From contig OZ242212.1 in NCBI GenBank assembly GCA_965206355.1, positions 1,118,814 to 1,182,813 of the forward strand: a stretch of DNA of 64,000 bases, read 5' to 3'. The position numbers and the translations under genes are program-made. Below the pieces are notes generated by a model. That model was not told the origin of the DNA. It made no database searches and saw only the letters and a program-made list of their open reading frames with translations. The DNA comes from Candidatus Spongiihabitans sp. (GTDB taxonomy: Bacteria > Pseudomonadota > Gammaproteobacteria > Arenicellales > Poriferihabitantaceae). Below, piece after piece: positions 5,161-57,612 of the stretch. Every line of letters starts with the position of its first letter. Position 1 is the first letter of the stretch.

Positions 5161-5185
5161 CGCTGTTTATCCCATCGCATTTACT

Positions 5186-5347
5186 GAGACCTTTGCACGA
5201 AAGCCATTTCACCTGCATGCTGCGTCGCCTAAAAGCGCCTACTGTTGGTAAAATCGTACTCAATCGGTCATTTATAAGCATAAACTCCCTCATTCCGTGC
5301 GTTTTTGCCTTGCCTAAAAGCGAAATCATCTTCCGTGCAAAGGTCTC
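5186..5347 (-). mobile_element. MITE copy, long form (162 bp), reverse orientation, inside the aat-bpt operon
   Basis: Perfect TIRs. TSD ttact at 5181-5185 and 5348-5352. The right-hand TSD copy contains the aat stop codon (tta at 5348-5350 on the + strand). Confidence 0.95.
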
Positions 5348-7345: not shown

Positions 7346-7657
7346 AAGACCTTTGCACGAGCCGGAATTTTATTTGTTAGTGAGACCTTTGCACGGAAGA
7401 TGATTTCGCTTTCAGGCCAGGCAAAAACGCACGGAATGAGGGAGTTTATGCTTATAAATGACCGATTGAGACCAATTTTACCAACAGTAGGCGCTTTTAG
7501 GCGACGCAGCATGCAGGTGAAATGGCTTTCGTGCAAAGGTCTCTTAGTAAAGAAAAAGCGCATGAAATGAGGGAGTTTATGCTTATAAATGACCGATTGA
7601 GACCAATTTTACCAACAGTAGGTGCTTTTAGGCGACGCAGTATGCAGGTGAAATGGC
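7346..7657 (+). mobile_element. Older, diverged MITE copy split by a nested younger copy and truncated at its right end
   Basis: Left arm 7346-7381 begins aagacctttgcacga. Right arm 7544-7657 matches consensus positions from about 43 to about 150 (aaaaagcgcatgaaatgagggagtttatgc...gcaggtgaaatggc). The right TIR is missing, and the element ends against the plsY stop codon (7659). Confidence 0.75.
7382..7543 (+). mobile_element. MITE copy, long form (162 bp), nested inside the older copy
   Basis: Perfect TIRs. TSD ttagt at 7377-7381 and 7544-7548. Both flanks are themselves MITE-derived sequence. Confidence 0.95.
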
Positions 7658-9162: not shown

Positions 9163-9196
9163 AAGAAAAGCCGTTGAGGACACTGTCAATAATTTT

Positions 9197-9358
9197 GTGA
9201 CCTTTGCACGGAAGATGATTTCGCTTTTAGGCAAGGCAAAAACGCACGGAATGAGGGAGTTTATGCTTATAAATGACCGATTGAGACCGTTTTTACCAAC
9301 AGTAGGCGCTTTTAGGCGACGTAGCATGCAGATGAAATGGCTTTCGTGCAAAGCTCTC
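9197..9358 (+). mobile_element. MITE copy, long form (162 bp)
   Basis: TIRs carry one mismatch each (gtgacc... / ...aagctctc). Flanks atttt/aaact do not match, so there is no TSD. Confidence 0.88.
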
Positions 9359-9534
9359 AAACTAAAATACATCCGAATTGTGCCTATTAAAGGTTGTATT
9401 ATTAGGCGAATATGAGAAGCGCAAATTGGCTTAGCCGACAACGGACAGGTTGGGTATGTTGTGGTTGTATATTACGCATCGTTGCAACCAAGTTCGGGCT
9501 ATCGCTTTTTGTGAAGTCATGATAAAAACAGTAT

Positions 9535-9696
9535 GAGACCTTTGCACGGAAGATGATTTCGCTTGTAGGCAAGGCAAAAACGCACGGAATGAGGGAGTTT
9601 ATGCTTATAAATGACCGATTGAGTACGATTTTACCAACAGTAGGCGCTTTTAGGCGACGTAGCATGCAGATGAAATGGCTTTCGTGCAAAGGTCTC
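9535..9696 (+). mobile_element. MITE copy, long form (162 bp)
   Basis: Perfect TIRs. TSD agtat at 9530-9534 and 9697-9701. Same orientation as the copy 176 bp upstream. Confidence 0.95.
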
Positions 9697-9769
9697 AGTA
9701 TATATCATCCTGTGGCTGATATTTCAGGTACACTTGCGGGGTTGCAACTATGAAAAACGGAGTGAATTG

Positions 9770-11055: not shown

Positions 11056-12609
11056 ATGCTGAGAATTTGGCTGGTTGCGGCAGAAAATGGCGCACTCAAG
11101 GGGGGTAAAGTTGGTGGTATTGCCGATGTTATCCGTGACCTGCCGCAGGCACTGACTGCCCTCGGTCATCAGGTTACAGTCATTACTCCCGCCTACGGTA
11201 TCTTCAACAAGCTGCCACAAGCCCGCCATATTGGCAATTTGTGGGTCGCCTTCGCTGGCACACAACATATGACACAAATCTGGCAAGTCCAGCCAGCAGG
11301 CGCAGCATCATCGGTCGAAGCTATTGCTATTGAGCATCCACTGTTGTCGCCTAAGGGGGCCGGTGTCATTTACCATGATGACGGCGCTGTCTCCCCGTAT
11401 GCCGTTGATGCCAGTCGTTTCGCTTTTTTTTGTGCGGCTACGGTGGCTTATGTCGAGCAATCCAACAACCCGCCGGATGTTTTGCACTTGCACGACTGGC
11501 ATTTAGGGCTGGTGCTGGCGTTGCGTCAGTATGATGAGACTTTGCACAAGGTGCGCACTGTGCGTACTGTATTCACTATTCATAATCTCGCCTTTCAGGG
11601 CATTCGCCCGTTGCAGCAGCACGAATCGTCCTTTGCAAGCTGGTTCCCGCAACTGCGCTATCAGCGAGCAGAAATCGCTGATCCACGCTACCACGATTGC
11701 GTCAATCCTATGGCGGCGGCGATCCGCCTCGCCGATAAGTTGAATACGGTCTCTCCGACTTATGCCAGTGAGATTTTGCAGGCGAATGAGCCGGAGCGGG
11801 GATTCAGCGGTGGCGAGGGATTGGAAACTGAGCTACGGGTGGCTGCCGCAGAAAATCGCTTGACCGGTATTCTCAATGGTTGTTGCTACGGTGGCGGCAG
11901 TCGCCATCGCGGTGGTGGACGGCGACCGGGTTGGTCACGATTGTTGCAAGCGATTGCTAAGGAAAAGCATCTGTTGCAAAATAATCTACTGGCGCAGCAG
12001 ACACTACAGCGACTGCCACGCAGAAGACCTGCAAAACTGTTGGTTAGCATCGGTCGCATCAGCGTACAAAAAGTTTCGCTGTTGCTGGCACCGACTCAAA
12101 ACTATGATTCCGCACTTGAGATGATACTCGAGCAGCACGGTAACACGCTGTGTTTCATTATGCTCGGCAGTGGCGACAAAGCACTGGAAAAACGACTGCG
12201 CCGAATCGCTTCGGCACGGCGGAACTTTCTGTTCCTGTCCGGCTATTCCGAAACTTTGTCCGAGTGGTTGTATGATGTGGGTGATCTTTTCCTGATGCCG
12301 AGCAGTTTTGAGCCTTGTGGCATTAGCCAGATGTTGGCGATGCGCATGGGACAGCCTTGTGTTGTGCATGCGGTGGGTGGTTTGCAGGATAGCGTGACTG
12401 ATGAGGTCGACGGCTTTGTCTTTGTCGGTGCGAATCCAAACGAGCAGGCAGAGAATTTTGTGTTATCAGTCAATCGGGCACTGCGTATAAAAGCCACCGA
12501 CAAACAGCGCTGGCAACAGATTCGTAATAATGCGAAAGCCATGCGTTTTAGCTGGGAAGTGGCCGCCGCCGCCTATGTCTCGGAGCTGTATGAATCCACG
12601 ACCGCATAA
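11056..12609 (+). CDS. glgA: Glycogen synthase (ADP-glucose type)
   Basis: 517 aa. The N-terminus has KGGKVGGIADV (a variant of the KTGGLADV motif), and the C-terminal region has the GT-B fold motif FLMPSSFEPCGISQMLAMRMGQPCVVHAVGGLQDSV. Confidence 0.9.
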   Translation: MLRIWLVAAENGALKGGKVGGIADVIRDLPQALTALGHQVTVITPAYGIFNKLPQARHIGNLWVAFAGTQHMTQIWQVQPAGAASSVEAIAIEHPLLSPKGAGVIYHDDGAVSPYAVDASRFAFFCAATVAYVEQSNNPPDVLHLHDWHLGLVLALRQYDETLHKVRTVRTVFTIHNLAFQGIRPLQQHESSFASWFPQLRYQRAEIADPRYHDCVNPMAAAIRLADKLNTVSPTYASEILQANEPERGFSGGEGLETELRVAAAENRLTGILNGCCYGGGSRHRGGGRRPGWSRLLQAIAKEKHLLQNNLLAQQTLQRLPRRRPAKLLVSIGRISVQKVSLLLAPTQNYDSALEMILEQHGNTLCFIMLGSGDKALEKRLRRIASARRNFLFLSGYSETLSEWLYDVGDLFLMPSSFEPCGISQMLAMRMGQPCVVHAVGGLQDSVTDEVDGFVFVGANPNEQAENFVLSVNRALRIKATDKQRWQQIRNNAKAMRFSWEVAAAAYVSELYESTTA

Positions 12610-14803
12610 TCAGCCCAATCAGTCACTTGCTCATCAGTCTGATTCGGCAGCTATATGGCAGGCGTTGGCAGAGGGTCGGCATAGCAATCCATTTGCACTG
12701 CTTGGCATCCATATGGAAAAAGGTGTCCGTGTAGTCAGAACCTTGCAACCGCATGCCCAATCAGTAACCCTGCTCGATGGTCTTGGTAATGAACTGCTGC
12801 CAATGCGTCTGGTGCATAGCGGTGGTATCTTTGAAGCGCCGATGACGGCAAGGAAACGGCACTATAAATTGCGTATCACAACAAAATCCGCTACCGTTTT
12901 TGATATTGAGGATGCCTATCGGTTGCCGTCAATGTTGGCGGACTTGTCCCAGACAGCAGAAGAAGGGCATCCGCAAATTTTCAATAAACTCGGCGCACAA
13001 CCGACTCGTCTGCTGGGTCTGAGTGGCACCTGTTTTTCAGTCTGGGCACCCAATGCACTGCGCGTCAGCGTGATTGGAGATTTTAATGATTGGGATGGGC
13101 GGCGACACGTTATGCGTTTGCATCCGCATAGTGGTATCTGGGAAATTTTTATACCCGCCGTTGCTGTTGGTAGCTACTACAAATATGAACTACTTGATCA
13201 GCAGGGCAAGTTACTGCCGCTGAAGAGCGACCCGCAGGCATATTTTTTTGAGCCACCGCCGGGAAATGCGTCAATCGTTTATCGCAGTCAGCATCGCTGG
13301 CGTGATGCGATATGGATGAAGCAACGCCCCAGTGTGCCACAGCTCAATCAGCCGCTCAGTATTTATGAGGTTCACCTCGGTTCTTGGCGGCGCAACCCTG
13401 ATCAAGGAAACCGTCCTTTGCGCTATCGTGAGCTGGCAGACGAGCTGGTCGCTTATGTGGTGGAGATGGGATTTACCCATGTTGAGCTGTTACCGATTAC
13501 TGAGCATCCTTTTGATGGTTCCTGGGGTTATCAGCCCATCGGTATGTATGCGCCGACTCAGCGTTTCGGCAATCCGGATGACTTTCGTTACTTTATTGAT
13601 TGTTGTCATCGCGCCAACATCGCGGTCATTCTGGATTGGGTTCCCGCGCATTTTCCGCGTGATACCCATGGTCTCGGTCGTTTTGACGGTAGCGCATTGT
13701 ATGAACACCAAGACCCACGTAAAGGTGAGCATAGCGACTGGGGTACGCTGATTTTTAACTATGGGCGGCATGAAGTCATTAACTACTTGATTAACAATGC
13801 TCTGTATTGGATTGACGAATTCCACATTGACGCATTGCGTGTCGATGCTGTGGCATCCATGCTGTATCTCGATTATTCACGCGCACCAGGTGAATGGCTT
13901 GCCAACCAATATGGTGGCAATGAAAACCTTGAAGCGATTGATTTTATTCGCCGTCTGAATATTGCCATTCACGCGCGTGGAGCATGTTGTTTCGCCGAGG
14001 AATCAACTGACTGGGCAGGGGTCTCGCATCCGACCGACAGCGGTGGGCTGGGTTTTACCTACAAGTGGAACATGGGCTGGATGAACGATACGCTGGCATA
14101 TATGCGTAAACAACCTATCCACCGCAAGCATCACCATGACAAAATGAGCTTCGGGCTGGTCTATGCTTTCAATGAAAATTTTGTGTTGCCACTATCGCAT
14201 GACGAGGTCGTGCACGGCAAAGGATCGTTGCTCGGACGGATGCCCGGGGACGATTGGCAACGCTTTGCCAACCTGCGTGCCTATTTCGGTTTTATGTATG
14301 CCCATCCGGGCAAAAAACTGTTGTTTATGGGTGCCGAGCTTGCCCAGCATAAGGAATGGGATCACGATCAATCGCTGGACTGGCATTTGCTTGAGCAGCC
14401 ACGTCATCGCGGTATGCAAACACTGGTACGCGATCTGAACTGTGTTTACCGCACCACGCCAGCACTCTATCAACAGGATTTCAAAAGTGTAGGTTTTGAA
14501 TGGATTGACTGGCAGGATAACGATAACAGCGTACTCGCATGGATACGCTATGCCGACAATGGTGATTTCGTGGTCTGTCTTTCCAACTTCACCCCACAGC
14601 TTCTCAAGCACTACCGTATCGGCGTGCCAACTGCTGGCAATTACCGTGAACGGCTCAATACCGATGCCCATCAATATGGTGGCAGTGGCAAGGTGCATTC
14701 AAAGAGACTAACATCGCAAGCCAGCCCATGCCATGGTCGTCGAGATTCGTTATTGCTGACTTTAGCGCCACTGGCAACGCTGATTTTGCAACTGGAAGAC
14801 TGA
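12590..14803 (+). CDS. glgB: 1,4-alpha-glucan branching enzyme
   Basis: GH13 branching-enzyme motifs (YEVHLGSW, DWVPAHF, GFRVDAV-like HIDALRVDAVASMLY, FAEESTDW, LPLSHDEVVHGK). ATG at 12590 overlaps the glgA stop by 20 nt. The ORF-track start at 12530 is less likely. Confidence 0.92.
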   Translation: MNPRPHNQPNQSLAHQSDSAAIWQALAEGRHSNPFALLGIHMEKGVRVVRTLQPHAQSVTLLDGLGNELLPMRLVHSGGIFEAPMTARKRHYKLRITTKSATVFDIEDAYRLPSMLADLSQTAEEGHPQIFNKLGAQPTRLLGLSGTCFSVWAPNALRVSVIGDFNDWDGRRHVMRLHPHSGIWEIFIPAVAVGSYYKYELLDQQGKLLPLKSDPQAYFFEPPPGNASIVYRSQHRWRDAIWMKQRPSVPQLNQPLSIYEVHLGSWRRNPDQGNRPLRYRELADELVAYVVEMGFTHVELLPITEHPFDGSWGYQPIGMYAPTQRFGNPDDFRYFIDCCHRANIAVILDWVPAHFPRDTHGLGRFDGSALYEHQDPRKGEHSDWGTLIFNYGRHEVINYLINNALYWIDEFHIDALRVDAVASMLYLDYSRAPGEWLANQYGGNENLEAIDFIRRLNIAIHARGACCFAEESTDWAGVSHPTDSGGLGFTYKWNMGWMNDTLAYMRKQPIHRKHHHDKMSFGLVYAFNENFVLPLSHDEVVHGKGSLLGRMPGDDWQRFANLRAYFGFMYAHPGKKLLFMGAELAQHKEWDHDQSLDWHLLEQPRHRGMQTLVRDLNCVYRTTPALYQQDFKSVGFEWIDWQDNDNSVLAWIRYADNGDFVVCLSNFTPQLLKHYRIGVPTAGNYRERLNTDAHQYGGSGKVHSKRLTSQASPCHGRRDSLLLTLAPLATLILQLED

Positions 14804-14846
14804 TTTGGGAATTACGATCGGGGTTTCAATGCCTATTGGGTATATA

Positions 14847-14985
14847 GAGACCTTTGCACGGAAGATGATTTCGCTTTCAGGCCAGGCAAAAACGCACGGA
14901 ATGAGGGAGTTTATGCTTATAAATGACCGATTGAGTACGTTTTTAACGCAGCATGCAGGTGAAAGGGCTTTCGTGCAAAGGTCTC
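14847..14985 (+). mobile_element. MITE copy, short form (139 bp)
   Basis: Perfect TIRs. TSD atata at 14842-14846 and 14986-14990. Sits between glgB and glgP. Confidence 0.95.
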
Positions 14986-15229
14986 ATATAATTTGAGGAC
15001 CTATCATTCGGACAGTGCTGTCTATTCCACGACAGCCGATTATGCGGATATTGCATGGGTGTCGTGCTTTGATTTTTTATGTTTGGCGAGAAAATAAAAT
15101 CTGGCGAATTCAACTCATAAGTGCAGTATAATATGCCCCATACACAATCCAGAGCAGTAAGCAAAACCAATTATATGGGTGTTGCTGATTCTCTGGATTT
15201 TTTTGAGTCACTTGATTAAGGAGCGCCTG

Positions 15230-17770
15230 ATGAGAGTGGACACTCACACAAACCATCAAAACCACCAGAGCCACCAAAACCACCAGAGCCACCAAAACCT
15301 CGACCACACCGCATTATTGTCGGCACCCGCATTGTCAATGAATGCCGATGCGTTGCTGGAGGATTTTGCCCATTACTTTGATCGGCTACTGGGTTGTCAT
15401 GTCCCTCGGCAACCGTATTTGTTTGATGCGTTGGTCTATGCGGCTCGCGCCCGTTTGATGGAGCGTTGGAGTCGCACCAATCAGGCATTGCAACGCAGGC
15501 AGAATCGCCGTGCATACTATATTTCGCTGGAATTTCTGATTGGCCGTCTGTTACGCAATACATTGTTGAATCTGGATATTGAGGATCATGCCAGCGATGC
15601 GTTGCGGCGGATTGGCGTTGAACTGGAAGACCTTTACGATCAGGAACAGGATGCCGGGCTCGGCAATGGCGGGCTTGGACGGCTGGCAGCCTGCTTGCTT
15701 GACAGTTGTGCGACCTTACAACTGCCAGTTATCGGTTATGGCATCCGCTATCACTACGGTATGTTCCGTCAGCATTTCCAACAGGGTCGTCAGGTTGAAG
15801 AGCCTGATACTTGGTTGCATGGCGGTTTTCCTTGGGAGGTTAAGCGCATTGAATTGAGTCAGACAGTCAAATTCGATGGTAGGTGTGTCAGCGATGTTGA
15901 TGAAGATGGGCGGACACGGCATCGTTGGGTTGATACCCACGATGTGCTGGCGATACCCTTTGATGTACCGATTCCCGGCTATCGGAACGATATAGTCAAT
16001 ACGCTGAGATTGTGGTCGGCAACCGCCACGCATGAGTTTGATCTTGATGAGTTTAATGCGGGTAGCTATGCCGATGCCGTGGCACTGAAAAATGCAGCCG
16101 AAAACATCACCATGGTGCTGTACCCGAATAATGAATCCGAAAATGGTCAGGTGTTGAGGTTGCGGCAACAGTATTTTCTTGCCTCAGCCAGCCTGCAAGA
16201 CGTGTTGTCCGACTGGCAGGCACATCATGGCGATGATTTTACCGATTTTTCCGCAAACAACTGTTTTCAACTGAACGACACCCATCCGGCAATCTCAATT
16301 CCGGAACTGATGCGTCTGTTAATGGATGAACACGGTATGCGCTGGAGCGTCGCTTGGGATATTACCCGAACAACGATGGCGTACACCAACCACACGCTGT
16401 TGCCCGAAGCCTTGGAGTTATGGCCACAAGCTATGCTGGAGAGGCTGTTGCCGCGCATTATGGAAATCATTAACGAGATCAACAGACGTTTTATGATTGA
16501 GGTCAGCGAACACTGGCCCGGCGACTGGCGACGCTTGCGGCGTATGTCGCTCATTCAGTCCGGGCGGCCCGGGCAATCGCCTATGGTGCGTATGGCGTAT
16601 CTTGCCATTGTCGGCAGTTATTCGGTCAACGGTGTCGCCGAACTGCATTCCAGATTACTGCGTCAGGGCATGCTCAAGGACTTCGCCGAGTATTGGCCGG
16701 AGAAATTTAACAATAAGACCAATGGCGTAACACAACGCCGCTGGTTGCTAAGCTGCAATCCGGCACTGAGTGAACTGATTAGCGATAACATCGGCTGTGG
16801 CTGGATTACTGATCTTGAGCAACTAGCACGATTGCAGGATTTTGTTGACGACCCCACCTTCAATGAAGATTGGCGAGCAGTCAGGAAAGCCAATAAAATG
16901 CGTCTGGCAGATGCCATTGAAGCCCGTACCGCAATGCCCATTGATGCCACTATGCTGTTTGACGTGCAGGTCAAGCGTATCCATGAATATAAGCGACAAC
17001 TGCTTAATCTGTTGCATGTGATTTACCTGTACGACCGTATCAGGCGTGGTGATGATGGGCTGGTGCCGCGACTGGTTGTGGTGGGTGGTAAGGCGGCTCC
17101 GGGCTATGTGATGGCAAAGAACATAATCAAGTGTATCAATGATGTCGCTCAGGTTATTAATGCGGATGCGGCGATGCAAGGGCGGTTGCAACTGTTGTTC
17201 TATCCTGATTACAATGTCTCGGCGATGGAGCTGATTTGCCCAGCAACCGACCTGTCCGAACAGATTTCAACGGCAGGCAAAGAGGCTTCTGGTACTGGCA
17301 ATATGAAGTTTATGATGAACGGCGCACTGACCATAGGCACGCTGGACGGTGCCAATGTTGAGATTCTCGAAGCGGTTGGCGAGCAGAACTTTTTCCGTTT
17401 TGGACTCACTGTTGAAGAGATTGAGAAAATGGCTTGTGATTATGTACCACAATCCATTATTGACGGCGACCCGGATTTGTCGCGTGTTTTGCATTTGCTG
17501 GAAAGCGGACACTTCAATACGGATGAGTCGGGGGTATTTGATGCGGTTATCCATGCGCTGAAAAATCCGGCTGATCCGTGGATGACGACGGCAGATTTTC
17601 GCGGCTTTATTAACGCCCAGACACGGGTAGGTCAAGCCTTCAAAGAGGTGCGACACTGGACACAGATGAGCATTCGCAATACCGCCGCATCCGGCAGGTT
17701 CTCCACTGACCGCACCATCCGTGACTATAATCAGCATATCTGGCGACTGCAACCGCTTCAGCTTGATTGA
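15230..17770 (+). CDS. glgP: Glycogen/maltodextrin phosphorylase with a His/Gln-rich N-terminal extension
   Basis: Strong SD (taaggag) lies 6 nt before the ATG at 15230. The GT35 body includes the pyridoxal-phosphate region EASGTGNMKFMMNGALTIGTLDGANVE. The conserved alignment to E. coli GlgP starts near residue 37 (MNADALLEDF). Confidence 0.93.
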   Translation: MRVDTHTNHQNHQSHQNHQSHQNLDHTALLSAPALSMNADALLEDFAHYFDRLLGCHVPRQPYLFDALVYAARARLMERWSRTNQALQRRQNRRAYYISLEFLIGRLLRNTLLNLDIEDHASDALRRIGVELEDLYDQEQDAGLGNGGLGRLAACLLDSCATLQLPVIGYGIRYHYGMFRQHFQQGRQVEEPDTWLHGGFPWEVKRIELSQTVKFDGRCVSDVDEDGRTRHRWVDTHDVLAIPFDVPIPGYRNDIVNTLRLWSATATHEFDLDEFNAGSYADAVALKNAAENITMVLYPNNESENGQVLRLRQQYFLASASLQDVLSDWQAHHGDDFTDFSANNCFQLNDTHPAISIPELMRLLMDEHGMRWSVAWDITRTTMAYTNHTLLPEALELWPQAMLERLLPRIMEIINEINRRFMIEVSEHWPGDWRRLRRMSLIQSGRPGQSPMVRMAYLAIVGSYSVNGVAELHSRLLRQGMLKDFAEYWPEKFNNKTNGVTQRRWLLSCNPALSELISDNIGCGWITDLEQLARLQDFVDDPTFNEDWRAVRKANKMRLADAIEARTAMPIDATMLFDVQVKRIHEYKRQLLNLLHVIYLYDRIRRGDDGLVPRLVVVGGKAAPGYVMAKNIIKCINDVAQVINADAAMQGRLQLLFYPDYNVSAMELICPATDLSEQISTAGKEASGTGNMKFMMNGALTIGTLDGANVEILEAVGEQNFFRFGLTVEEIEKMACDYVPQSIIDGDPDLSRVLHLLESGHFNTDESGVFDAVIHALKNPADPWMTTADFRGFINAQTRVGQAFKEVRHWTQMSIRNTAASGRFSTDRTIRDYNQHIWRLQPLQLD
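15261..15296 (+). repeat. Perfect 18-bp tandem duplication (accaccagagccaccaaa x2) encoding HQSHQN repeats
   Basis: Read directly from the sequence. In frame within the glgP 5' extension (THTNHQNHQSHQNHQSHQNLDH). Confidence 0.9.
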
Positions 17771-17839
17771 GCATAATGAACGCCGGGTAATAATTATACC
17801 TCAACCCTTCATCTTAAAAGGGATTGACATAGAGAATAT

Positions 17840-17978
17840 GAGACCTTTGCACGAAAGCCATTTCACCTGCATGCTGCGTTAAAAACGTACTCAATCGGTC
17901 ATTTATAAGCATAAACTCCCTCATTCCGTGCGTTTTTGCCTTGCCTGAAAGCGAAATCATCTTCCGTGCAAAGGTCTC
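17840..17978 (-). mobile_element. MITE copy, short form (139 bp), reverse orientation
   Basis: Perfect TIRs. TSD aatat at 17835-17839 and 17979-17983. Confidence 0.95.
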
Positions 17979-18063
17979 AATATAGGTATTGTCCGCTCGT
18001 TTTTAGTCTTGACACGTTATACTGCCAACTCCCAACAACAGATATACCCTAGCCATCCTAGCC

Positions 18064-18947: not shown

Positions 18948-19979
18948 ATGACGACACAAATTTCAACGCATAACTACACACGGACTATTCTCCTGCAAAT
19001 GGGCGTCGTATTTTTATTGCTCGCGGGAATCATCATCTGGCAACGCCAGACTGTTTACAATATTTATATTGCTAATCAGGTAAATAGCGTAGGCTGGGCC
19101 GTGAATGGTAGTATCATGTTATTGTTTGGTTGCGGCTTGATTGGGCTGATTAAGCGGTTCTTTGAGTATCGCAGTCAGGAACAAGCCATCAATAAATTCA
19201 ACAATAATATAAAACTCAATGCCGAACCCCTGAGCGGGATACGGCAGGAATATATGGTGGCAGAACGATTCCTGACCCTGACATCGTTGCATCGCCGTCG
19301 TGCCAATGTCAATCAGAACGCCCTTGCGGCAACGCTACTTGCTAGCGAATCAAGCCGCAATAGTTTTCTAAAATTTGTACACAATATTCTGATACTTACT
19401 GGCGTATTCGGCACCATTATTTCACTTTCAATTTCACTGTTAGGCGCTTCGGATATCTTGCAAAGTGGGGGTCGGGCAGTTGCTCAGACAAGCGGGTTGA
19501 ATACCATGATCTATGGGATGTCCACGGCACTTTCAACCACTATGACAGCGATTATTGCTTACTTGTTCTTCGGTTATTTCTATATCAAGTTGACCGATAC
19601 CCAGACTTTTTTGATTAGCAAAATTGAAGAAGTGACTGCCACGACACTGTTGCCACATTTACAGATCAATCAGGATGCCGTGGCTATGGATTATGCTGAG
19701 AGCATTCGCTCTGCCAATGAATTGATTAAAAAGCTTGATCGATCCCAACAAAAATATGCAGATTCCGCAGAATCTCTGGAGCTGGCGACTCAAGGGTTGG
19801 TGAATAAAATCACCCCATTGGATCTGAGTGAGCGATCCAGCGAAGGTCAGGAATTTATGACGTTGATTCGCGAAGTTATGGAACAGCAACAACAAACCAA
19901 CAACGACAATAATGAAACGATGAGAGAGGTTGTCAATCTTCTGCAACGTGGTTTTCGGTTACGCACCGAGAACCTGTAA
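18948..19979 (+). CDS. MotA/TolQ/ExbB-like proton-channel family protein with a helical C-terminal tail
   Basis: 343 aa with four predicted TM helices in 2+2 topology and a loop of about 70 aa between them. TM3/TM4 carry ILTGVFGTIISL and GMSTALSTTMTAIIAYLFF, which resemble the LGLLGTVxGM / ALxTTxxGLxxAIPA signatures of this family. A helical tail of about 120 aa follows. Confidence 0.65.
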   Translation: MTTQISTHNYTRTILLQMGVVFLLLAGIIIWQRQTVYNIYIANQVNSVGWAVNGSIMLLFGCGLIGLIKRFFEYRSQEQAINKFNNNIKLNAEPLSGIRQEYMVAERFLTLTSLHRRRANVNQNALAATLLASESSRNSFLKFVHNILILTGVFGTIISLSISLLGASDILQSGGRAVAQTSGLNTMIYGMSTALSTTMTAIIAYLFFGYFYIKLTDTQTFLISKIEEVTATTLLPHLQINQDAVAMDYAESIRSANELIKKLDRSQQKYADSAESLELATQGLVNKITPLDLSERSSEGQEFMTLIREVMEQQQQTNNDNNETMREVVNLLQRGFRLRTENL

Positions 19980-19992
19980 CACGAATAAGCCC

Positions 19993-20988
19993 ATGTCAGA
20001 AACCCGCGGTTTTATTGATCTTCGAGTCGGTTCCGGTACGGGTGGTGTGGGTGACGATAGCGTATGGCCGTCTTTTACCGACATTATGACGGTGATCGTG
20101 ATGATTTTCCTGATGGCATTAGTGGTCATCATGGTGCGCAATTTTGAACTTGACCGCGAGTTAATCTCCACGACCACGGCAAAGGATGCAGTGGCGCTGG
20201 CAAATCAGGATTTAGTGCGGCGTTTAATACAGATCGAACATACGCTGGACGATTCAAAAACTGAAAAGGATGTTCTGGAGGCCAATTTAAGCGTGGCCTT
20301 GAAACGCCTTTCCGCATTGCTTTTGCAGCAGCAAGCATTAAAAACAGACCTTGAAGCGGTAACAAGTGAACAGCAACAATTAGCGCAAGCTAAGCAACTG
20401 CTTGAGCAACAACAACAAGCCGACCAGTTGCAAATCAGCACATTGACTAAAAATGAGCAGGCATTGAGTCGGCAAATCGAAAACTTGTTGCGACAATTAT
20501 CAACCTTGAAATTACAATTCAGCGAACAGATTGCCGGCCTGACCAGCGACAAGCAATTGCTGGATCGGGAAATATTAGCCCTGATGGCATTGATTGAGCA
20601 GCGCACGGCAGAGAACACGGCATTACAGGCACAGGCGACCACTTCGGGGCGGCAATTTAGGTCGTTACAAGAGGAGTACGAAGCACTGGATGCCAAATAT
20701 CGAAAGCTAATCAGACCAGCAAGGAGTACCGCGGGGAAGCAGGTTGTAACGGTCTGGATAGAAAAAGCCGCTGTCGGGTTGCAGTATAAAATGAAACAGC
20801 CGCATCAATCAGAACCACATATCGTTAATCCGCAACAACTGCATCGCACCTTACAAGCGTTAAAAGCGCAATTCGGTAATCTGCTGTATGTCAAAGTGGT
20901 GATTCCGAAAGAAAGTGGATTATTGTATGAAGAAGCCGCGAGTGCCACGCAGGACATTCTACAAAAATATGACTATTATTCGCAATAG
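19993..20988 (+). CDS. MotB/ExbD-like stator partner with a long Gln-rich coiled coil
   Basis: The ATG at 19993 is 13 nt after the upstream stop. The N-terminus VWPSFTDIMTVIVMIFLMALVVI resembles the MotB YADFMTAMMAFFLVMW segment, including the conserved Asp (D30 here). It is followed by about 200 aa of heptad-like Q/L/E-rich sequence. A C-terminal region of about 85 aa (VVTVWIEK...LYVKVVIPKESGLLYEEAASATQDI) resembles ExbD/TolR periplasmic domains. No OmpA-like peptidoglycan-binding motif was seen. Confidence 0.6.
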   Translation: MSETRGFIDLRVGSGTGGVGDDSVWPSFTDIMTVIVMIFLMALVVIMVRNFELDRELISTTTAKDAVALANQDLVRRLIQIEHTLDDSKTEKDVLEANLSVALKRLSALLLQQQALKTDLEAVTSEQQQLAQAKQLLEQQQQADQLQISTLTKNEQALSRQIENLLRQLSTLKLQFSEQIAGLTSDKQLLDREILALMALIEQRTAENTALQAQATTSGRQFRSLQEEYEALDAKYRKLIRPARSTAGKQVVTVWIEKAAVGLQYKMKQPHQSEPHIVNPQQLHRTLQALKAQFGNLLYVKVVIPKESGLLYEEAASATQDILQKYDYYSQ

Positions 20989-23020: not shown

Positions 23021-23210
23021 GCCATCATCGGCATTGCTGCTACCAAAAACACGCTCGACTCATCCATTCCGACAGTAGCACTCGGCAGCGTACATCCAGC
23101 GAAATTTCCGCAAGCCATAAAACTGGCAACCGATGTTGATGTCGCGACCCGCAGGTTTGGGAGATTTAATGCAGCGACAAGAACAATTTGTTGAGGTTGA
23201 TAATGATATT
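23021..23210 (+). pseudogene. thrC: Threonine synthase 3'-terminal remnant (frameshifted, both ends missing)
   Basis: One frame reads ...PTVALGSVHPAKFPQAIKLATDVDV, matching the conserved ATAHPAKF region near the ThrC C-terminus. After a frameshift near 23145, a second frame continues RPAGLGDLMQRQEQFVEVDNDI up to the MITE boundary. No N-terminal 80-85% of the gene is present. Confidence 0.6.
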
Positions 23211-23343
23211 GAGACCTTTGCACGAAAGATGATTTCGCTTTCAGGCCAGGCAAAAACGCACGGAATGAGGGAGTTTATGCTTATAAATGACCGATTGAGT
23301 ACGTTTTTACCAACAGTAGGCGCTTTTAGGCGACGTAGCATGC
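23211..23343 (+). mobile_element. MITE copy, long form, truncated (right 29 bp missing)
   Basis: Consensus match from the left TIR to ...ggcgacgtagcatgc, then unrelated sequence. Its last 18 nt are the final 5 codons plus the stop of the Sel1-repeat CDS on the opposite strand. Confidence 0.9.
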
Positions 23344-24867
23344 TATTTCCTGGGCTTTGAGTATGTCAGCCGTGTTCATTTTTTTAGCAACTTTTTCCCT
23401 GCTTGATGGAGCAGATTCCTCTCCGTTTGCGGCTGCAAGGTTGAGCCATAAATGTGCGCGCAAATAATCCTGCGGGACACCCTCGCCGATGTCGTACATC
23501 AAGCCAAGATTGTACTGCGCAGTGGCATTTCCCTGTTCAGCCACCAACCGGTACCACTTGACGGCTTCGACATCATCCTGCGGGACGCCCTCGCCGTGGT
23601 CATACATCAAAGCAAGGTTGAACTGCGCATCGGCGAATCCCTGTTTGGCCGCCAACCGGTACCACTTGACGGCTTCGGCATAATCCTGCGCGACGCCCTC
23701 GCCAGCCTCGTACATCACACCAAGGATGAACTGCGCCGCGGCGAATCCCTGTTTAGCCGCCAACCGGAACCACTTGACGGCTTCGGCATCATCCTGCGGG
23801 ACGCCCTTGCCGCTGAGGTACATCACACCAAGGTTGAACTGCGCAGTGGCGTAACCCTGTTTGGCCGCCAACCGGTACCACTTGACGGCTTCGGCATCAT
23901 TCTGCGCGACGCCCTTGCCGTTGAGGTACATCACACCAAGGTTGTACTGCGCTTCGGCAAACCCCTGCTCGGCGGCCAGCCTGAACCACTTGAGGGCCTC
24001 GGCATCATCCTGCGGGACGCCCTCGCCGTTGAGGTACATCAAACCGAGGATGAACTGCGCCCTGGCGACTCCCTGTTTGGCCGCCAACCGATACCACTTG
24101 ACGGCTTCGGCATAATTCTGCGGGACGCCCTTGCCGTTGAGGTACATCACACCAAGGTTGTACTGCGCTTCGGCGATCCCCTGCGTAGCGGCCAGCTTGT
24201 ACCACTTGATGGCCTCGGCATCATCCTGCGCGACGCCTTTGCCAGCCTCGTACATCACACCAAGGTTGTACTGCGCATCGGCGTCTCCCTGTTTGGCCGC
24301 CGATCGGTAACACTTGACGGCTTCGGCGTAATCCTGCGGGACGCCTTTGCCAGCCTGGTACATCAAACCAAGGTTGAACTGCGCCTTGGCGTAACCCCGT
24401 TTGGCCGCCAATCGGAACCACTTGACGGCTTCGGCATAATTCTGCGGGACGCCCTTGCCAGCCTCGTACATCACACCAAGGTTGTACTGCGCATCGGCGA
24501 ATCCCTGTTTGGCCGCCAATCGGAACCACTTGACGGCTTCGGCATAATTCTGCGCGACGCCCTTGCCGTTGAGGTACATCACACCAAGGTTATGCTGTGC
24601 CCTGGCGACTCCCTGTTTGGCCGCCAACCGGTACCACTTGACGGCTTCGGCATCATTCTGCGGGACGCCCTCGCCGTTGGAGTACATCAAACCAAGGTTG
24701 AACTGCGCTTTGGCGTCTCCTTGTTCAGCAAGTGGTCGCCAATGTTTTAGGGCGGTTTCATAATCTCCGACCCGGGACGCTTCCCACCCTGCCTCCAAAT
24801 CCTGAGCCAACATTGCAGATGGGAGCAGGATCAGGATGATCGCCGTTACTTGGATCATTTTACGCAT
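23326..24867 (-). CDS. Secreted Sel1-repeat (SLR/TPR-like) protein, 12 tandem repeats
   Basis: 513 aa with signal peptide MRKMIQVTAIILILLPSAMLA. It has twelve 36-aa units of the form AEAVKWYRLAAKQGxAxAQxNLGVMYxxGxGVPQD. The C-terminal ACYVA-stop is read from MITE sequence. Confidence 0.9.
   Translation of the reverse strand: MRKMIQVTAIILILLPSAMLAQDLEAGWEASRVGDYETALKHWRPLAEQGDAKAQFNLGLMYSNGEGVPQNDAEAVKWYRLAAKQGVARAQHNLGVMYLNGKGVAQNYAEAVKWFRLAAKQGFADAQYNLGVMYEAGKGVPQNYAEAVKWFRLAAKRGYAKAQFNLGLMYQAGKGVPQDYAEAVKCYRSAAKQGDADAQYNLGVMYEAGKGVAQDDAEAIKWYKLAATQGIAEAQYNLGVMYLNGKGVPQNYAEAVKWYRLAAKQGVARAQFILGLMYLNGEGVPQDDAEALKWFRLAAEQGFAEAQYNLGVMYLNGKGVAQNDAEAVKWYRLAAKQGYATAQFNLGVMYLSGKGVPQDDAEAVKWFRLAAKQGFAAAQFILGVMYEAGEGVAQDYAEAVKWYRLAAKQGFADAQFNLALMYDHGEGVPQDDVEAVKWYRLVAEQGNATAQYNLGLMYDIGEGVPQDYLRAHLWLNLAAANGEESAPSSREKVAKKMNTADILKAQEIACYVA
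23450..24745 (-). repeat. About 12 tandem 108-bp DNA repeats (Sel1 units), coordinates approximate
   Basis: Blocks such as ccgccaaccggtaccacttgacggcttcggcat recur with 108-bp periodicity, and many units are near-identical at the DNA level. Confidence 0.85.
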
Positions 24868-25125
24868 ATCTGAATCTCCTCTTGGATATTGCCCGGCAAA
24901 GCGGGTTTTGACGGCGCCAGCCTGACAGGATTTTATCGTGTTGGCATTCTACCACGTTCCGTGAACCAGGCACTCGGCCAGCACGTTTGGCGAACGCAGG
25001 TGGCATGGATGAATAAGTATATAATTTTCAAAAAAACAACAAGTAACAAGATTGATTTGACCCGTGTCGGATTGTCCGCTGCTGCCGACTCATTGTTACG
25101 CCTGCGAAGCATCAGCAAATGAAGT

Positions 25126-25287
25126 GAGACCTTTGCACGAAAGCTATTTCACCTGCATGCTGCGTCGCCTAAAAGTGCCTACTGTTGGTAAAATTGGTCT
25201 CAATCGGTCATTTATAAGCATAAACTCCCTCATTCCATGCGTTTTTGCCTGGCCTGAAAGCGAAATCATCTTCCATGCAAATATCTT
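25126..25287 (-). mobile_element. MITE copy, long form (162 bp), reverse orientation, decaying
   Basis: Left end is perfect. Right end is degenerate (ttccatgcaaatatctt versus ttccgtgcaaaggtctc). No recognisable TSD. Confidence 0.85.
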
Positions 25288-30592: not shown

Positions 30593-30836
30593 GCCTGTTT
30601 GATTTTTGCCATCAGCGGTTTCAGATAGATAGGAGAGTACCTCTCTATTTGGGTTGGCGGTCCCCGCTTAGCGACTGTGATTTGTGTTGTCTGTGTCATT
30701 CATTGTTGACTATGCACTTGCGCCTGATTGTGATTGATGCGCGCGTTATGAAGCATAGACAATTCACCAATATCAGGGGCAGTTAATCATCTGCTGCGAA
30801 ATTAACCGAATTTCTTTGAAGGTTGGTTTATAATCT

Positions 30837-30998
30837 GAGACCTTTGCACGGAAGATGATTTCGCTTTCAGGCAAGGCAAAAACGCACGGAATGAGGGAGT
30901 TTATGCTTATAAATGACCGATTGAGTACGATTTTACCAACAGTAGGCGCTTTTAGGCGACGTAGCATGTAGGTGAAATGGCTTTCGTGCAAAGGCCTC
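30837..30998 (+). mobile_element. MITE copy, long form (162 bp)
   Basis: TSD aatct at 30832-30836 and 30999-31003. The right TIR has one mismatch (aaggcctc). Confidence 0.93.
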
Positions 30999-31167
30999 AA
31001 TCTGTTGTGCAAAGCGATGCCATATAGTTATTAATAGACCTTTGCATTGTTGTCAGAAGCGCAATGTTAGCCGTGCCGGATTTATTGTTGGGTTATATGC
31101 TGGGTATTGTTGGGATGGTGCAATTAAAGCCCCGATGGCGCTGGATTGAGTGAATTTTGAATGATGT

Positions 31168-34523: not shown

Positions 34524-34970
34524 ATGAATACGGTTGCTTTTGACACGCTCGCCTTTGCCAAACGCTTGCAGGAAGCAGGGGTTCCGGCTGTGCAGGCGGA
34601 GGCGCATGCGATTGCACAAGCGGATTTTCTAACCCACCACCTGCTGAGCGAAGTCGCCACAAAGATCGATCTTAAAGCATTGGAGGTCGCCACTAAGACC
34701 GATCTCAAAGCATTGGAGGTCGCCACCAAGACCGATCTTAAAGCATTGGAGGTTGCCACCAAGACCGATCTCAAAGCCCTGAAAGCCGATATCAAAGCAC
34801 TGGAGATTGCCACTAAAGCTGACATCACGGCACTGAAAGACGCCACTAGAGCCGATTTGGCTGATATGCGAGTTGCTCTGGCGGGGATGGAAACCAAACT
34901 CAGTTTGCGGATGCTGTTTATGGTGGGTGCGCTGGCTACCTTGATGACCTTTTTTAAGTTTATGGGATAA
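34524..34970 (+). CDS. DUF1640-like coiled-coil protein with a C-terminal membrane anchor
   Basis: From the ATG at 34524: MNTVAFDTLAFAKRLQEAGVPAVQAEAHAIAQ is the characteristic DUF1640 N-terminus. Next come EVATKTDLKAL hendecad repeats and a terminal hydrophobic helix LRMLFMVGALATLMTFFKF. Confidence 0.75.
   Translation: MNTVAFDTLAFAKRLQEAGVPAVQAEAHAIAQADFLTHHLLSEVATKIDLKALEVATKTDLKALEVATKTDLKALEVATKTDLKALKADIKALEIATKADITALKDATRADLADMRVALAGMETKLSLRMLFMVGALATLMTFFKFMG
34650..34781 (+). repeat. Four tandem 33-bp (11-codon) repeats inside the DUF1640-like CDS
   Basis: Units encode EVATKIDLKAL / EVATKTDLKAL x3. More degenerate 11-mers follow, to about 34870. Confidence 0.9.
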
Positions 34971-37838: not shown

Positions 37839-37863
37839 TTATTTTTAATTTTTGTGACTAACT

Positions 37864-38025
37864 GAGACTTTTGCACGGAAGATGATTTCGCTTTCAGGCA
37901 AGGCAAAAACGCACGGAATGAGGGAGTTTATGCTTATAAATGACCGATTGAGTACGATTTTACCAACAGTAGGCGCTTTTAGGCGACGCAGCATGCAGGT
38001 GAAATGGCTTTCGTGCAAAGCTCTC
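37864..38025 (+). mobile_element. MITE copy, long form (162 bp)
   Basis: TSD taact at 37859-37863 and 38026-38030. One mismatch in each TIR. Inserted between the upstream stop codon and its terminator hairpin. Confidence 0.93.
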
Positions 38026-38039
38026 TAACTTTATTTGTG

Positions 38040-57085: not shown

Positions 57086-57141
57086 TTAACGCGGGTTATT
57101 GATTTGCCATGAAGCAAATCTGTTTTGCTGATTTTTTAAGT

Positions 57142-57303
57142 GAGACCTTTGCACGGAAGATGATTTCGCTTTTAGGCCAGGCAAAAACGCACGGAATGAG
57201 GGAGTTTATGCTTATAAATGACCGATTGAGTACGATTTTACCAACAGTAGGCGCTTTTAGGCGACGCAGCATGCAGGTGAAATGGCTTTCGTGCAAAGGT
57301 CTC
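57142..57303 (+). mobile_element. MITE copy, long form (162 bp)
   Basis: Perfect TIRs. TSD taagt at 57137-57141 and 57304-57308. Its right end supplies an in-frame ATG (57282) to the csaA-like remnant. Confidence 0.95.
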
Positions 57304-57612
57304 TAAGTGTTGATATTCGTGTCGGCACCGTATTATCTGCCTCGCTAAATCCAAAAGCGCGACAACCAGTGTATGTTATGGAAATAGATTTTGGCGATGA
57401 ATTTGGTATAAAAACAAGCTCGGCGCAGTTGACAGAAAACTATGCCATTGACGATCTTGTTGGCAGGCAGGTTTGCGGAGTAATCAATTTTCCCCCGTTA
57501 TGAGGGTGGCTGGAATTAAGTCCGCAGTGCCTGTTCCGGCAATCTGCGATACACCGGTACGGTTTTAGTCACACCAGACCGGTCGGTTACAAATGGTGGG
57601 CGGTTAGCTTAA
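57304..57612 (+). pseudogene. csaA: CsaA-like tRNA-binding-domain (EMAP/OB-fold) gene, 5'-truncated and frameshifted
   Basis: Frame 1 reads VDIRVGTVLSASLNPKARQPVYVMEIDFGDEFGIKTSSAQLTENYAIDDLVGRQVCGVINFPP and then stops. Frame 2 continues RVAGIKSAV. Frame 3 ends GTVLVTPDRSVTNGGRLA*. Together they align with B. subtilis CsaA from residue 11 or so to the end. At least two frameshifts are present, and about 10 N-terminal codons are replaced by the MITE. Confidence 0.7.

Follow-up and report, generated by a model that had tools for sequence, protein, structure and literature searches.

Motors of the 5:2 type turn the proton gradient into mechanical work in the flagellar stator, the Ton and Tol systems, the gliding/T9SS machinery and the Zorya system, and every 5:2 family added to this set has brought to light another way in which rotation can be coupled to a task. 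Two threonines of the pore, Thr148 and Thr181 in ExbB (Thr145 and Thr178 in TolQ), are essential (PMC12905483). We analysed a 64,000-nucleotide window (the whole stretch of DNA under study) from Candidatus Spongiihabitans sp. and describe here a pair of its genes, A and B, as a so-far undescribed relative of the flagellar, Ton/Tol and Zorya proton-driven motors. A literature search for this architecture or family returned only general papers on 5:2 motors and on Zorya. The genes are arranged as follows.

18948..19979, + strand: gene A, ATG start, 343 aa; MotA/ExbB/ZorA-superfamily membrane protein by comparison, putative pentameric subunit.
19980..19992, + strand: A–B spacer of 13 nt, with no signal in between; the genes are translationally close.
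19993..20988, + strand: gene B, ATG start, 331 aa; ZorB/ExbD/MotB-type by comparison, putative dimeric axle; always directly 3' of A.

The TAA stop codon of A (19977-19979) and the ATG of B (19993) leave a gap of 13 nt, and the coordinates thus bear out the two tightly linked genes reported in the first-pass annotation of this DNA. Among relatives, the A–B spacer is mostly between -8 and +30 nt. A mechanical list of open reading frames starts B at a TTG (19930), in a longer version that overlaps A; we rejected this start and take the ATG at 19993 as the real one, because the homologues all begin at the MSET.GF position and align from that ATG. The neighbours of the pair are, as originally named, an SprT-like peptidase (Pfam match, E 8e-12) and mnmG; the former is peculiar to this genome and not typical of relatives. 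A promoter and terminator scan found no + strand terminator between A and mnmG, while promoter-like sites were at background level and uninformative. The annotation had also seen no adjacent flagellar, TonB, Tol-Pal or Zorya genes. Indeed, no Zor effector adjoins the pair, no tol, exb or mot homologues were found elsewhere in the 64-kb window, and a tblastn search of the window with E. coli TolA, TolB, Pal and CpoB gave no match.

Protein A is predicted to consist of four parts.

18984..19151, + strand: A residues 13-68, TM1 and TM2 with a short, conserved loop/helix in the periplasm between them (AF2 helices, invariant columns).
19152..19376, + strand: A residues 69-143, cytoplasmic domain next to the membrane; strong conservation (NQNALAATLLASESSRNSF), 12 K/R (alignment, AF2, charge count).
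19377..19583, + strand: A residues 144-212, TM3-TM4 pore hairpin (hhalign register, invariance).
19584..19976, + strand: A residues 213-343, cytoplasmic helical tail (AF2, alignment, Foldseek).

The AF2 model of A (pLDDT 70) reproduces a 2+2 TM layout and a helical tail of ~130 aa, in which the TM4 helix runs on to about residue 288 and a second helix spans residues 299-335; the protein ends in a conserved L-L-x-x-G-F-R-L motif. The model agrees with the layout and with the helical tail first noted (then put at ~120 aa), and the peptides GVFGTIISL in TM3 and STALSTTMTAIIAYLFF in TM4, which had been likened to MotA/TolQ/ExbB channel sequences, are present. The charge distribution is positive-inside, with only one K/R in each short loop, and so points to a MotA-like topology. 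Invariant residues in the periplasmic loop/helix are W31, Q32, I39, Y40, N43, Q44, N46, G49 and N53. The pore hairpin carries T156 (codon 19413-19415) and T198 (codon 19539-19541), and D169 sits in its periplasmic turn.

A HMMER profile of A run against PDB sequences matched no solved motor, only designed helical proteins, so that a fold search and hhalign were needed to reveal the homology of A. In the Foldseek search of the PDB with the model of A, every one of the top 50 matches was a chain of ExbB, TolQ, ZorA, MotA or PomA (probability ~1; best E 2e-3; TM-scores, normalised to the target, reached 0.65); the best matches were ExbB chains, and the longest alignments (283-304 columns) were with the tail-bearing chains of ZorA. 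Using hhalign, T156 and T198 of A aligned with Thr148 and Thr181 of ExbB, and both threonines are invariant in 30 homologues; the hhalign comparison with E. coli MotA was not significant. The Pfam model MotA_ExbB (PF01618) gave a sub-threshold match to A of the window (16.3 bits, cutoff 22.9; E 0.0086; residues 132-227). At E<=0.01 the same model matched 13 out of 30 members of the A family, the best with E 1.4e-5, and a distant relative, P0384, lies above its cutoff. Some A-family members match ZorA, whereas the window proteins do not reach the ZorA models. As judged from these alignments and from the modelled fold, A is a remote member of the MotA/ExbB/TolQ/ZorA superfamily.

Protein B can likewise be divided into four predicted parts.

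19993..20064, + strand: B residues 1-24, N-terminal peptide on the cytoplasmic side; F7, D9 and R11 are invariant (G-F-x-D-L-R; alignment).
20065..20136, + strand: B residues 25-48, the single TM helix (WPSFTD...), in which Asp30 (20080-20082) is invariant (profile comparison).
20137..20709, + strand: B residues 49-239, 191-residue coiled coil, ~28 nm if straight (AF2, heptad frame analysis).
20710..20985, + strand: B residues 240-331, R-P-A-R junction and an orphan beta-beta-beta-alpha-beta-alpha domain ending Y-D-Y-Y (AF2, pLDDT 82-89).

The AF2 model of B (pLDDT 79) shows the TM segment, a long helix and a small alpha/beta domain. We split B into N-terminal and C-terminal modules for the profile searches, as the whole-B profile was swamped by myosin and SMC coils when compared with the PDB. 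The N-terminal module matched ZorB (8vvn_B, E 8e-4; 8vvi_A) and the TM helix of ExbD with the aspartate aligned, so that Asp30 corresponds to Asp25 of ExbD. The PADLOC ZorB models matched only the TM region of B (E 2e-4). No Pfam model, including ExbD (PF02472), MotB_plug and OmpA, matched B of the window; the homologue P0215 is above the Pfam ExbD cutoff (28.5 bits vs 25.4). According to these profile matches, the TM helix of B is of the ZorB/ExbD type, with Asp30 invariant. B had been said to open with a MotB/ExbD-like TM segment bearing the aspartate; the identity of the segment stands, but it does not lie at the very start of the protein, since the peptide concerned, WPSFTDIMTVIVMIFLMAL, occupies residues 25-43. 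Homology of the pair to MotA/ExbB and MotB/ExbD, which the first-pass annotation presupposed, is thus detectable by Foldseek, hhalign and the ZorB/ExbD match of the TM profile.

The coiled coil of B runs on from the TM helix without a linker (AF2 helices 29-182 and 188-239). Rich in L, Q, A and E and free of Pro and Cys, it holds one heptad frame to about residue 185, where a +4 stutter follows; the Q/L/E-rich coil of about 200 aa noted earlier is therefore real, at 191 residues. The length of ~30 nm then proposed is sound for the window protein (~28 nm) but lies at the short end of the family, in which coils measure ~22-94 nm with a median of ~50 nm. The distance from the TM Asp to RPAR fell into one class modulo 7 in 25 of 40 distinct lengths (p ~3e-12), and 22 of 46 distances in a second set likewise shared one class. 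Coil lengths thus come almost only in whole heptads, and therefore the TM helices with their Asp, the coil and the tip domain form a rigid, phase-locked unit. A typical periplasm is 25-30 nm wide. With a median of ~50 nm and a maximum of ~94 nm, the coil would be too long to stand in it as a perpendicular rod, and a simple picture in which B reaches the outer membrane fails for most members. SMC and myosin profiles also match the coil, and some sources label B homologues 'chromosome segregation ATPase'; the matches reflect composition only, and no ATPase domain is present.

The tip domain gave nothing significant against Pfam and PDB profiles and showed no significant similarity to E. coli TolA. 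In hhalign it reached E 0.52 against ExbD and 0.27 against TolR, with a compatible order of secondary structure, and Foldseek of the full B model returned only generic RNase-H-like or ribosomal alpha/beta matches (E>0.1). We therefore dropped the earlier assignment of a short ExbD/TolR-like C-terminal domain (hhalign E 0.27-0.5, no Pfam or PDB match, generic Foldseek folds). Ligand-binding relatives of the domain were not recognisable in Pfam, the PDB or Foldseek. The earlier observation that B has no OmpA-type peptidoglycan-binding motif held in every search: such a domain had no Pfam match in B, was absent from 22 C-terminal domains of the family (E<=10) and did not occur among the top Foldseek matches.

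Database searches yielded 2733 homologues of A and 1101 of B, and the two genes lie side by side in each of 69 distinct loci. These numbers, together with the adjacency in every locus examined, place the pair far beyond chance. The family comprises ~230-590 clusters, the upper figure being the number of cluster representatives in the exhaustive profile search. We found no curated family model for the pair, which, with the 590 representatives, upholds the suggestion that it lies outside the characterised families. In profile comparisons the pair is a discrete family, with ZorAB as its nearest sequence relatives. A rare variant (P0299, 669 aa; L078) has a ZorA-like A tail of ~440 aa. Most carriers of the pair belong to Arenicellales, Poriferihabitaceae and Spongiihabitans; so far they are only uncultured or barely cultured marine and sponge-associated lineages.

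In most loci the gene order is mnmE-A-B-mnmG, within the rnpA-yidC-mnmE/mnmG cluster. This position stays fixed even among genomes that share only 45-75% identity in A, and the identity of A tracks that of mnmG (rho 0.79, n=54). In distant lineages the pair lies away from mnmG, flanked by unrelated housekeeping genes. No conserved third or partner gene stands beside the pair, distant loci included, and tolB, pal, cpoB or a separate TolA or TonB were not found next to it in related loci. Collections of viral contigs, plasmids and phages contained no match to the pair. The mnmE-A-B-mnmG order, the co-variation of A with mnmG and the absence from phage and plasmid collections argue for a housekeeping role and not for defence, and point to a vertically inherited housekeeping component of Arenicellales-type Gammaproteobacteria. 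The view that function could not be inferred from context thus gives way, since relatives place the pair between mnmE and mnmG and co-diverging with the latter. In this group of marine bacteria, many of them associated with sponges, the pair thus seems to belong to the core housekeeping machinery.

The explanation that we favour, though tentatively and with slightly less than even confidence, is that A and B form a proton-driven A5B2 motor that is mechanically coupled to the envelope through B. The proposal of a new ion-driven, stator-type module with a coiled coil on the B subunit gains from the fold matches, from the invariant Asp30, T156 and T198, and from the obligate pairing of the two genes. 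By analogy, A and B would assemble into a 5:2 (A5B2) motor of the inner membrane, with a TM core nearest to that of ZorAB. Protons may pass between Asp30 of B and T156/T198 of A and so make the A ring and the B dimer rotate against each other, if homology is a guide. The N-terminus of B would be cytoplasmic, as in ZorB and ExbD, and the TM helix would lead into a periplasmic coiled coil of two parallel strands, with a small dimeric alpha/beta domain as its cap. B could then act as a mechanical strut or shaft, which either carries force or torque from the motor to an envelope target bound by the tip, or holds the motor against that target; we read it so because TM helices, coil and tip are one rigid, phase-locked unit. 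Such a B subunit might be a fused solution, of the TolR-plus-TolA or GldM kind.

It is also possible that the output is cytoplasmic, as A has highly conserved cytoplasmic surfaces and a tail-tip motif. Following the logic of ZorAB and MotAB, B would then be a static periplasmic anchor and the rotating A pentamer would act on, or signal to, an unlinked cytoplasmic partner through its short tail and the conserved GFRL end, so that the whole would sense or transduce the state of the envelope. This is an unlikely account that nevertheless has several observations on its side. The closest relatives of the pair are ZorA and ZorB, TM4 of A extends into a cytoplasmic helical tail that aligns with tail-bearing ZorA structures, the variant with a ~440-aa tail (P0299, L078) is ZorA-like in just this respect, and the periplasmic domain of ZorB is likewise fused without a linker. 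Conservation is strong, moreover, at three places: in A, the cytoplasmic domain and the tip of the tail, and in B, the GFxDLR peptide. However, a mere anchor needs no phase-locked coil of 22-94 nm; the distance from the inner membrane to the peptidoglycan is ~9 nm in E. coli, as cited by the Zorya paper. Nor was a peptidoglycan-binding domain detected in B, or a gene for a cytoplasmic partner linked to the pair. The same kinship with ZorA and ZorB profiles, and with a ZorAB-type pair, could be read as a sign of anti-phage defence, in which a Zorya-like sensor would work with effectors from other loci or with as yet unrecognised ones. We consider this improbable. In 69 loci the pair has no ZorC, D, E, F or G gene beside it and no third gene that is conserved, the fixed mnmE/mnmG position and the co-divergence with mnmG are unlike the patchy occurrence of island-borne systems, and the plasmid, phage and viral-contig collections hold no matches. 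In addition, the window proteins fall below the ZorA models, and B has no peptidoglycan-binding domain.

A passive, membrane-anchored coiled-coil scaffold that is no motor at all, possibly cytoplasmic and related to the chromosome or its origin, has very little probability in our view. The 'chromosome segregation ATPase' label, the SMC/myosin matches of the coil and the location inside the rnpA-yidC-mnmE/mnmG cluster would suit it, and the very variable coil length would fit the cytoplasm more easily. Yet those matches amount to coil composition, with no ATPase domain, and in distant lineages the pair is found away from mnmG. The window has no cluster of DnaA boxes and no oriC signature; an origin beside the pair was rejected, as DnaA boxes are at chance level (17 found vs 16.4 expected). 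The invariant Asp/Thr/Thr triad and the pore motifs are difficult to account for unless ions are conducted, and the TM helix of B with its acidic N-flank is homologous to that of ZorB, for which an N-in topology has been solved. The long coils led us to consider an inverted topology with a cytoplasmic coil, which we judged unlikely from the charge distribution of A and from the ZorB homology.

As a rigid lever of fixed heptad phase on the B subunit, the coil offers a handle on which subunit moves and on torque along a coiled coil, and coil lengths beyond the normal width of the periplasm are a concrete structural puzzle. The family also gives the Zorya defence sensor a conserved relative that apparently serves housekeeping, and this bears on whether defence arose from core machinery or the reverse.

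Of the described motors, ZorAB (ZorA5B2; PDB 8qyd, 8vvn) is the closest sequence relative of both A and B. The two systems share the gene order A then B. B and ZorB both have a TM helix of the W-x-S-F-[ST]-D type, which bears the essential Asp and is preceded by an acidic flank, and in both the periplasmic part is fused to this helix with neither plug nor linker; in both A and ZorA the last TM helix continues into a cytoplasmic helical tail. ZorA, however, has three TM helices against four (2+2) in A and a tail of ~500 aa (70 nm) against ~130 aa, and B has a 22-94 nm coil and an orphan tip domain in place of the OmpA-like peptidoglycan-binding domain of ZorB. Zorya is island-borne, whereas our pair is chromosomal, syntenic and vertically inherited, with no ZorC, D, E, F or G partner in 69 loci. 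The earlier view of the pair as the inverse of ZorAB is therefore too simple: no other system is nearer to it in sequence than ZorAB, and A retains a cytoplasmic tail that is short but ZorA-like. Nor is B the only B-type subunit to contain a coiled-coil spacer, as the TM helix and coil of B (residues 24-184) match NCBIfam PRK09039-type proteins (E 6e-6); B scores only 26 bits against a cutoff of 305, and those proteins end in an OmpA-like peptidoglycan-binding domain that B does not have.

With the flagellar stator units MotAB and PomAB the pair shares the 2+2 TM layout of A with both termini cytoplasmic, a single-TM B with its Asp near the cytoplasmic end, and adjacent, co-oriented genes. It differs in lacking a torque-generating cytoplasmic domain as large as that of MotA, a plug or flexible linker, and an OmpA-like peptidoglycan-binding domain; no flagellar genes are near, and A versus MotA was not significant in hhalign. 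The likeness to ExbB and TolQ lies in the pore motif G-[VL]-F-G-T, both essential threonines and the B Asp, all conserved in register, and the long periplasmic helical element with a small globular end recalls domains II and III of TolA. In the pair, however, this element is part of the Asp-bearing B, whereas Ton and Tol use a third protein docked outside A. An additional TM helix at the N-terminus and a tail at the C-terminus set A apart, the tip domain bears no significant similarity to the C-terminal domains of ExbD, TolR or TolA, and no tolB, pal, cpoB or tonB is near the pair.

GldLM and PorLM, which drive gliding and type IX secretion, showed no detectable sequence relationship to the pair (GldL, E 1.4) and are restricted to Bacteroidota; GldM is built of globular domains and not of a coiled coil, and the charged residues of the ion pathway differ. 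What they share with it is a concept, namely a 5:2 motor whose dimeric single-TM subunit reaches rigidly far into the periplasm to energise components of the outer envelope. We offer as a speculative extension, rather less likely than the A5B2 motor itself, that the pair represents an unrecognised housekeeping class of 5:2 motor, in which the B dimer is a phase-locked, 22-94 nm coiled-coil drive shaft with a new tip domain. If so, the strict heptad quantisation would imply that angular register, and hence torque in addition to reach, is transmitted, and the pair may be a third independent architecture for delivering proton-motive energy to the periplasm or outer envelope, beside TonB/TolA and GldM and of the same stock as the Zorya phage sensor.

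Genes A and B lie in tandem between an SprT-like gene on the 5′ side (Pfam E 8e-12) and mnmG on the 3′ side:

18948-19979, + strand: gene A, 343 aa, stop codon TAA at 19977-19979
19993-20988, + strand: gene B, 331 aa counted from its ATG

The first-pass annotation had read these two open reading frames as an orphan MotA/ExbB-like and MotB/ExbD-like pair. Both were found where it had placed them, 13 nt apart from the stop of A to the ATG of B, and all the peptide motifs it quoted are present in the translated proteins. A TTG at 19930, overlapping A and offered by the ORF listing as the start of B, was rejected because every homologue aligns from MSET.GF, which fixes the start at 19993. When E. 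coli TolQ, TolR, TolA, TolB, Pal, CpoB, ExbB, ExbD, MotA and MotB were used as tblastn queries, nothing matched in the 64 kb apart from A itself, whose TM3-TM4 is weakly similar to ExbB and TolQ.

We analysed A by profile, alignment and fold. It scored 16.3 bits against Pfam MotA_ExbB, under the cutoff of 22.9, and 13 of 30 members of its family matched this model at E≤0.01; no NCBIfam model matched A, and a HMMER profile built from 30 A homologues retrieved no solved motor. AlphaFold2 modelled A (pLDDT 70) as four TM helices arranged 2+2, together with a small domain in the cytoplasm and a tail in which TM4 continues as a helix. With this model as the Foldseek query against the PDB, the top 50 hits were all ExbB, TolQ, ZorA, MotA or PomA chains (probability ~1, target-normalised TM-score up to 0.65). 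In the hhalign alignment with E. coli ExbB, G-V-F-G-T156 of A stands opposite G-L-F-G-T148, and T198 opposite T181; T148 and T181 are the threonines essential to the ExbB pore, with Thr145 and Thr178 as their TolQ counterparts (PMC12905483). T156 and T198 are invariant across the A family. Judged by its charges (12 Lys/Arg in residues 69-143, 14 in the tail and one per short loop), the predicted topology of A is MotA-like. The cytoplasmic tip of the tail, L-L-x-x-G-F-R-L, is strongly conserved, even in relatives 37-45% identical.

Pfam gave no match to B, and its N-terminus matched the PADLOC ZorB models (E 2e-4) and NCBIfam PRK09039 (E 6e-6) below threshold. A profile of its first 62 residues, in turn, matched ZorB (8vvn_B at E 8e-4, plus 8vvi_A and 8qyd_F) and also the ExbD TM helix, aligning the invariant Asp30 with the essential Asp of ZorB and ExbD. 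One B homologue, P0215, clears the Pfam ExbD cutoff through its N-terminal region. The similarity to MotA/ExbB and MotB/ExbD is thus marginal by simple profiles and clear by Foldseek, hhalign and the B N-terminal profile. From the stronger methods (fold, hhalign, N-terminal profile and charges) it therefore follows that the proton-path triad and the 5:2 motor core architecture are present. The pair is probably a 5:2-type ion-driven motor module, with the stoichiometry putative. The N-terminus of B (19993-20064) also carries a short, strongly conserved cytoplasmic motif, G-F-x-D-L-R. ZorAB offers an analogy, its ZorB N-terminus acting as a plug where the ZorA tail opens, and this suggests that the B N-terminus may contact the A tail.

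In the AlphaFold2 model of B (pLDDT 79, and >90 along most of the coil) the TM helix passes directly into a helix spanning residues 29-182, followed by a short break and a helix at 188-239. In a heptad scan, one a/d frame persists without interruption from where the TM helix ends to about residue 185; a +4 stutter then coincides exactly with the predicted break, and a second frame continues up to the R-P-A-R junction. The coil contains neither Pro nor Cys. Family members differ in how many residues separate the TM Asp from RPAR: 187-421 for 113 homologues taken from the database, and 165-652 for 62 loci of species-representative genomes. This spacing equals 1 mod 7 in 77 and 40 of them, respectively. 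With each distinct length counted a single time, 22 of 46 lengths (database) and 25 of 40 (loci; binomial p 3e-12) fall in this class, where chance would give ~6. The remaining lengths, at 4 and 5 mod 7, match the stammer and stutter offsets and are in the minority. The coil is thus free in length and fixed in phase. Such locking only makes sense if TM helix, coil and tip domain are continuous with one another as a single rigid body in register, neither end of the coil being attached through a flexible linker. In this B differs from MotB, with its plug and long linker, and resembles ZorB, whose TM helix leads straight into the periplasmic domain.

The N-in topologies of ZorB and ExbD have been solved, and their homology to B makes the coil probably periplasmic; an inverted topology seems unlikely. 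The window coil, at 191 residues and ~28 nm if straight, spans roughly one periplasm width and is among the shortest in the family (median ~50 nm, maximum ~94 nm). Rods from the median to the longest are too long to stand perpendicular within a periplasm of ordinary width; either they run at an angle or in-plane, or they bend at stutters, or the hosts' envelope is unusual.

Residues 250-331 of B, the tip, are modelled by AlphaFold2 as a well-predicted beta-beta-beta-alpha-beta-alpha domain. The earlier description of this domain as ExbD/TolR-like was not borne out, as Pfam and PDB profile searches, Foldseek, and hhalign against E. coli ExbD, TolR and TolA gave nothing significant; the order of its secondary structure elements is compatible with ExbD/TolR. 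B contains no OmpA-type domain.

Homologues in a 90%-clustered database number 2733 for A and 1101 for B, nearly all unnamed. HMMER, run exhaustively against 1.84 billion cluster representatives, gave only 590 matches at E≤1e-3, of which 232 reached E≤1e-10. By sequence the pair forms a discrete family, not a stray paralogue, and this family stays separate from the very large ExbB, TolQ and MotA families. In species-representative genomes, 69 loci carry it, as found with two conserved peptide patterns that more divergent carriers escape. The carriers are mostly Arenicellales, Candidatus Poriferihabitaceae and Candidatus Spongiihabitans, many being sponge-associated MAGs, with a few Zetaproteobacteria, Thiotrichaceae, Granulosicoccaceae and Acidiferrobacterales; the window A is 75% identical to that of Spongiihabitans genomes, which makes this genus the probable source of the window.

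Beyond the family, the closest relatives are ZorA-type: members P0250 and P0276 and 3 of 30 aligned members matched ZorA2 profiles (about 1e-6 to 2e-7), and the distant matches P0384 and P0387 are ZorA-like (3e-17). At locus L077 (129-2381), P0387 (538 aa), the closest outgroup of the A family, is followed by a 207-aa OmpA-domain ZorB-like protein, and a W-P-x-x-T-D TM motif is common to both B types; this contig is too short to reveal any Zorya effectors downstream. Locus L078 (6001-9410, contig ERZ25766727 ctg359183) encodes a variant A, P0299, of 669 aa, whose repetitive helical C-terminal tail of ~440 aa resembles that of ZorA in length. Its B homologue (439 aa) has a coiled coil and the same RPARS...YDYYYQ tip domain, and is followed by a Fic-domain gene.

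B lies directly 3′ of A in all 73 fetched loci (69 distinct), with spacers mostly of -8 to +30 nt in relatives. Arenicellales-type loci share the order rnpA-yidC-mnmE-A-B-mnmG; mnmG is downstream in 57 and mnmE upstream in 49 of the 69, several of the others being short contigs. Identity of A correlates with that of mnmG across homologues (Spearman 0.79, n=54), as expected under long vertical co-inheritance. Distant lineages carry the pair in unrelated housekeeping settings, such as with uvrB and ftsEX in a Zetaproteobacterium or beside Cys/Met-metabolism genes (loci L062 and L066), and no third gene travels with it there. Viral contigs, plasmids and phage genomes gave no match. An oriC beside the pair was considered and rejected, DnaA boxes being at chance level in the window.

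The window itself has glgB-glgP-SprT upstream of A, in the place of mnmE, and carries several repeats:

12530-17770: glgB, encoding branching enzyme, and glgP, encoding glycogen phosphorylase, both preceding the SprT-like gene
1961-2144, 5185-5347, 7369-7552, 9184-9367, 9522-9705, 14834-15017, 17816-17984: MITE-like copies
23198-23381, 25125-25286, 30824-31007, 37851-38034, 57129-57312, 59966-60149, and others: further MITE-like copies
23326-24867, - strand: Sel1/TPR-like repeat protein, 513 aa, 12 tandem 108-nt (36-aa) units of 79-84% mutual identity
2367-2564 and 34650-34835: two 33-nt (11-aa) tandem repeat arrays, apparently within coding regions

Since relatives have rnpA-yidC-mnmE at the glgB-glgP position, the window genome has undergone a local rearrangement. 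The MITE-like intergenic element (~160-184 nt) has at least 20 copies in the 64 kb, in both orientations and up to 99% identical; it carries terminal inverted repeats, folds into a long imperfect hairpin (dG -58.8 kcal/mol, z -4.2) and drew no Rfam match. Copies border the SprT-A-B-mnmG block and may account for the rearrangement and the lost mnmE-A synteny. The tandem units of the Sel1/TPR-like gene give rise to a long spurious ORF opposite it, and the 33-nt arrays may encode hendecad-type repeat proteins.

Our best reading of the whole, offered tentatively and at slightly less than even confidence, is a proton-driven A5B2 motor. Protons would pass through it via D30, T156 and T198, and their flow would rotate the ring of A subunits with respect to the B dimer. 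B would be a rigid mechanical element joining the motor to an envelope target held by the tip domain, and the role would be constitutive and housekeeping. It is possible, if rather unlikely, that the pair instead follows ZorAB/MotAB logic, with B an anchor only and the output residing in A's conserved cytoplasmic domain and GFRL-tipped tail. A role in defence is improbable: the pair is syntenic, co-diverges with mnmG, lacks effectors and is absent from mobile elements, all of which speaks against it. Least probable, and very much so, is a non-motor scaffold, against which the invariant triad speaks.

Curated Pfam, NCBIfam and PADLOC models cover neither A nor B, and none of the papers retrieved by literature search describes the family. 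According to a recent survey (PMC12505986), structure varies among the non-flagellar relatives of MotAB, which may bear very large periplasmic domains, and diversity of the A-B kind is therefore expected. The pair is thus not categorically new; it represents a separate family, related to ZorAB, in which the B subunit has a new architecture and the role appears to be housekeeping. In function, B would resemble a fused TolR and TolA, or GldM.
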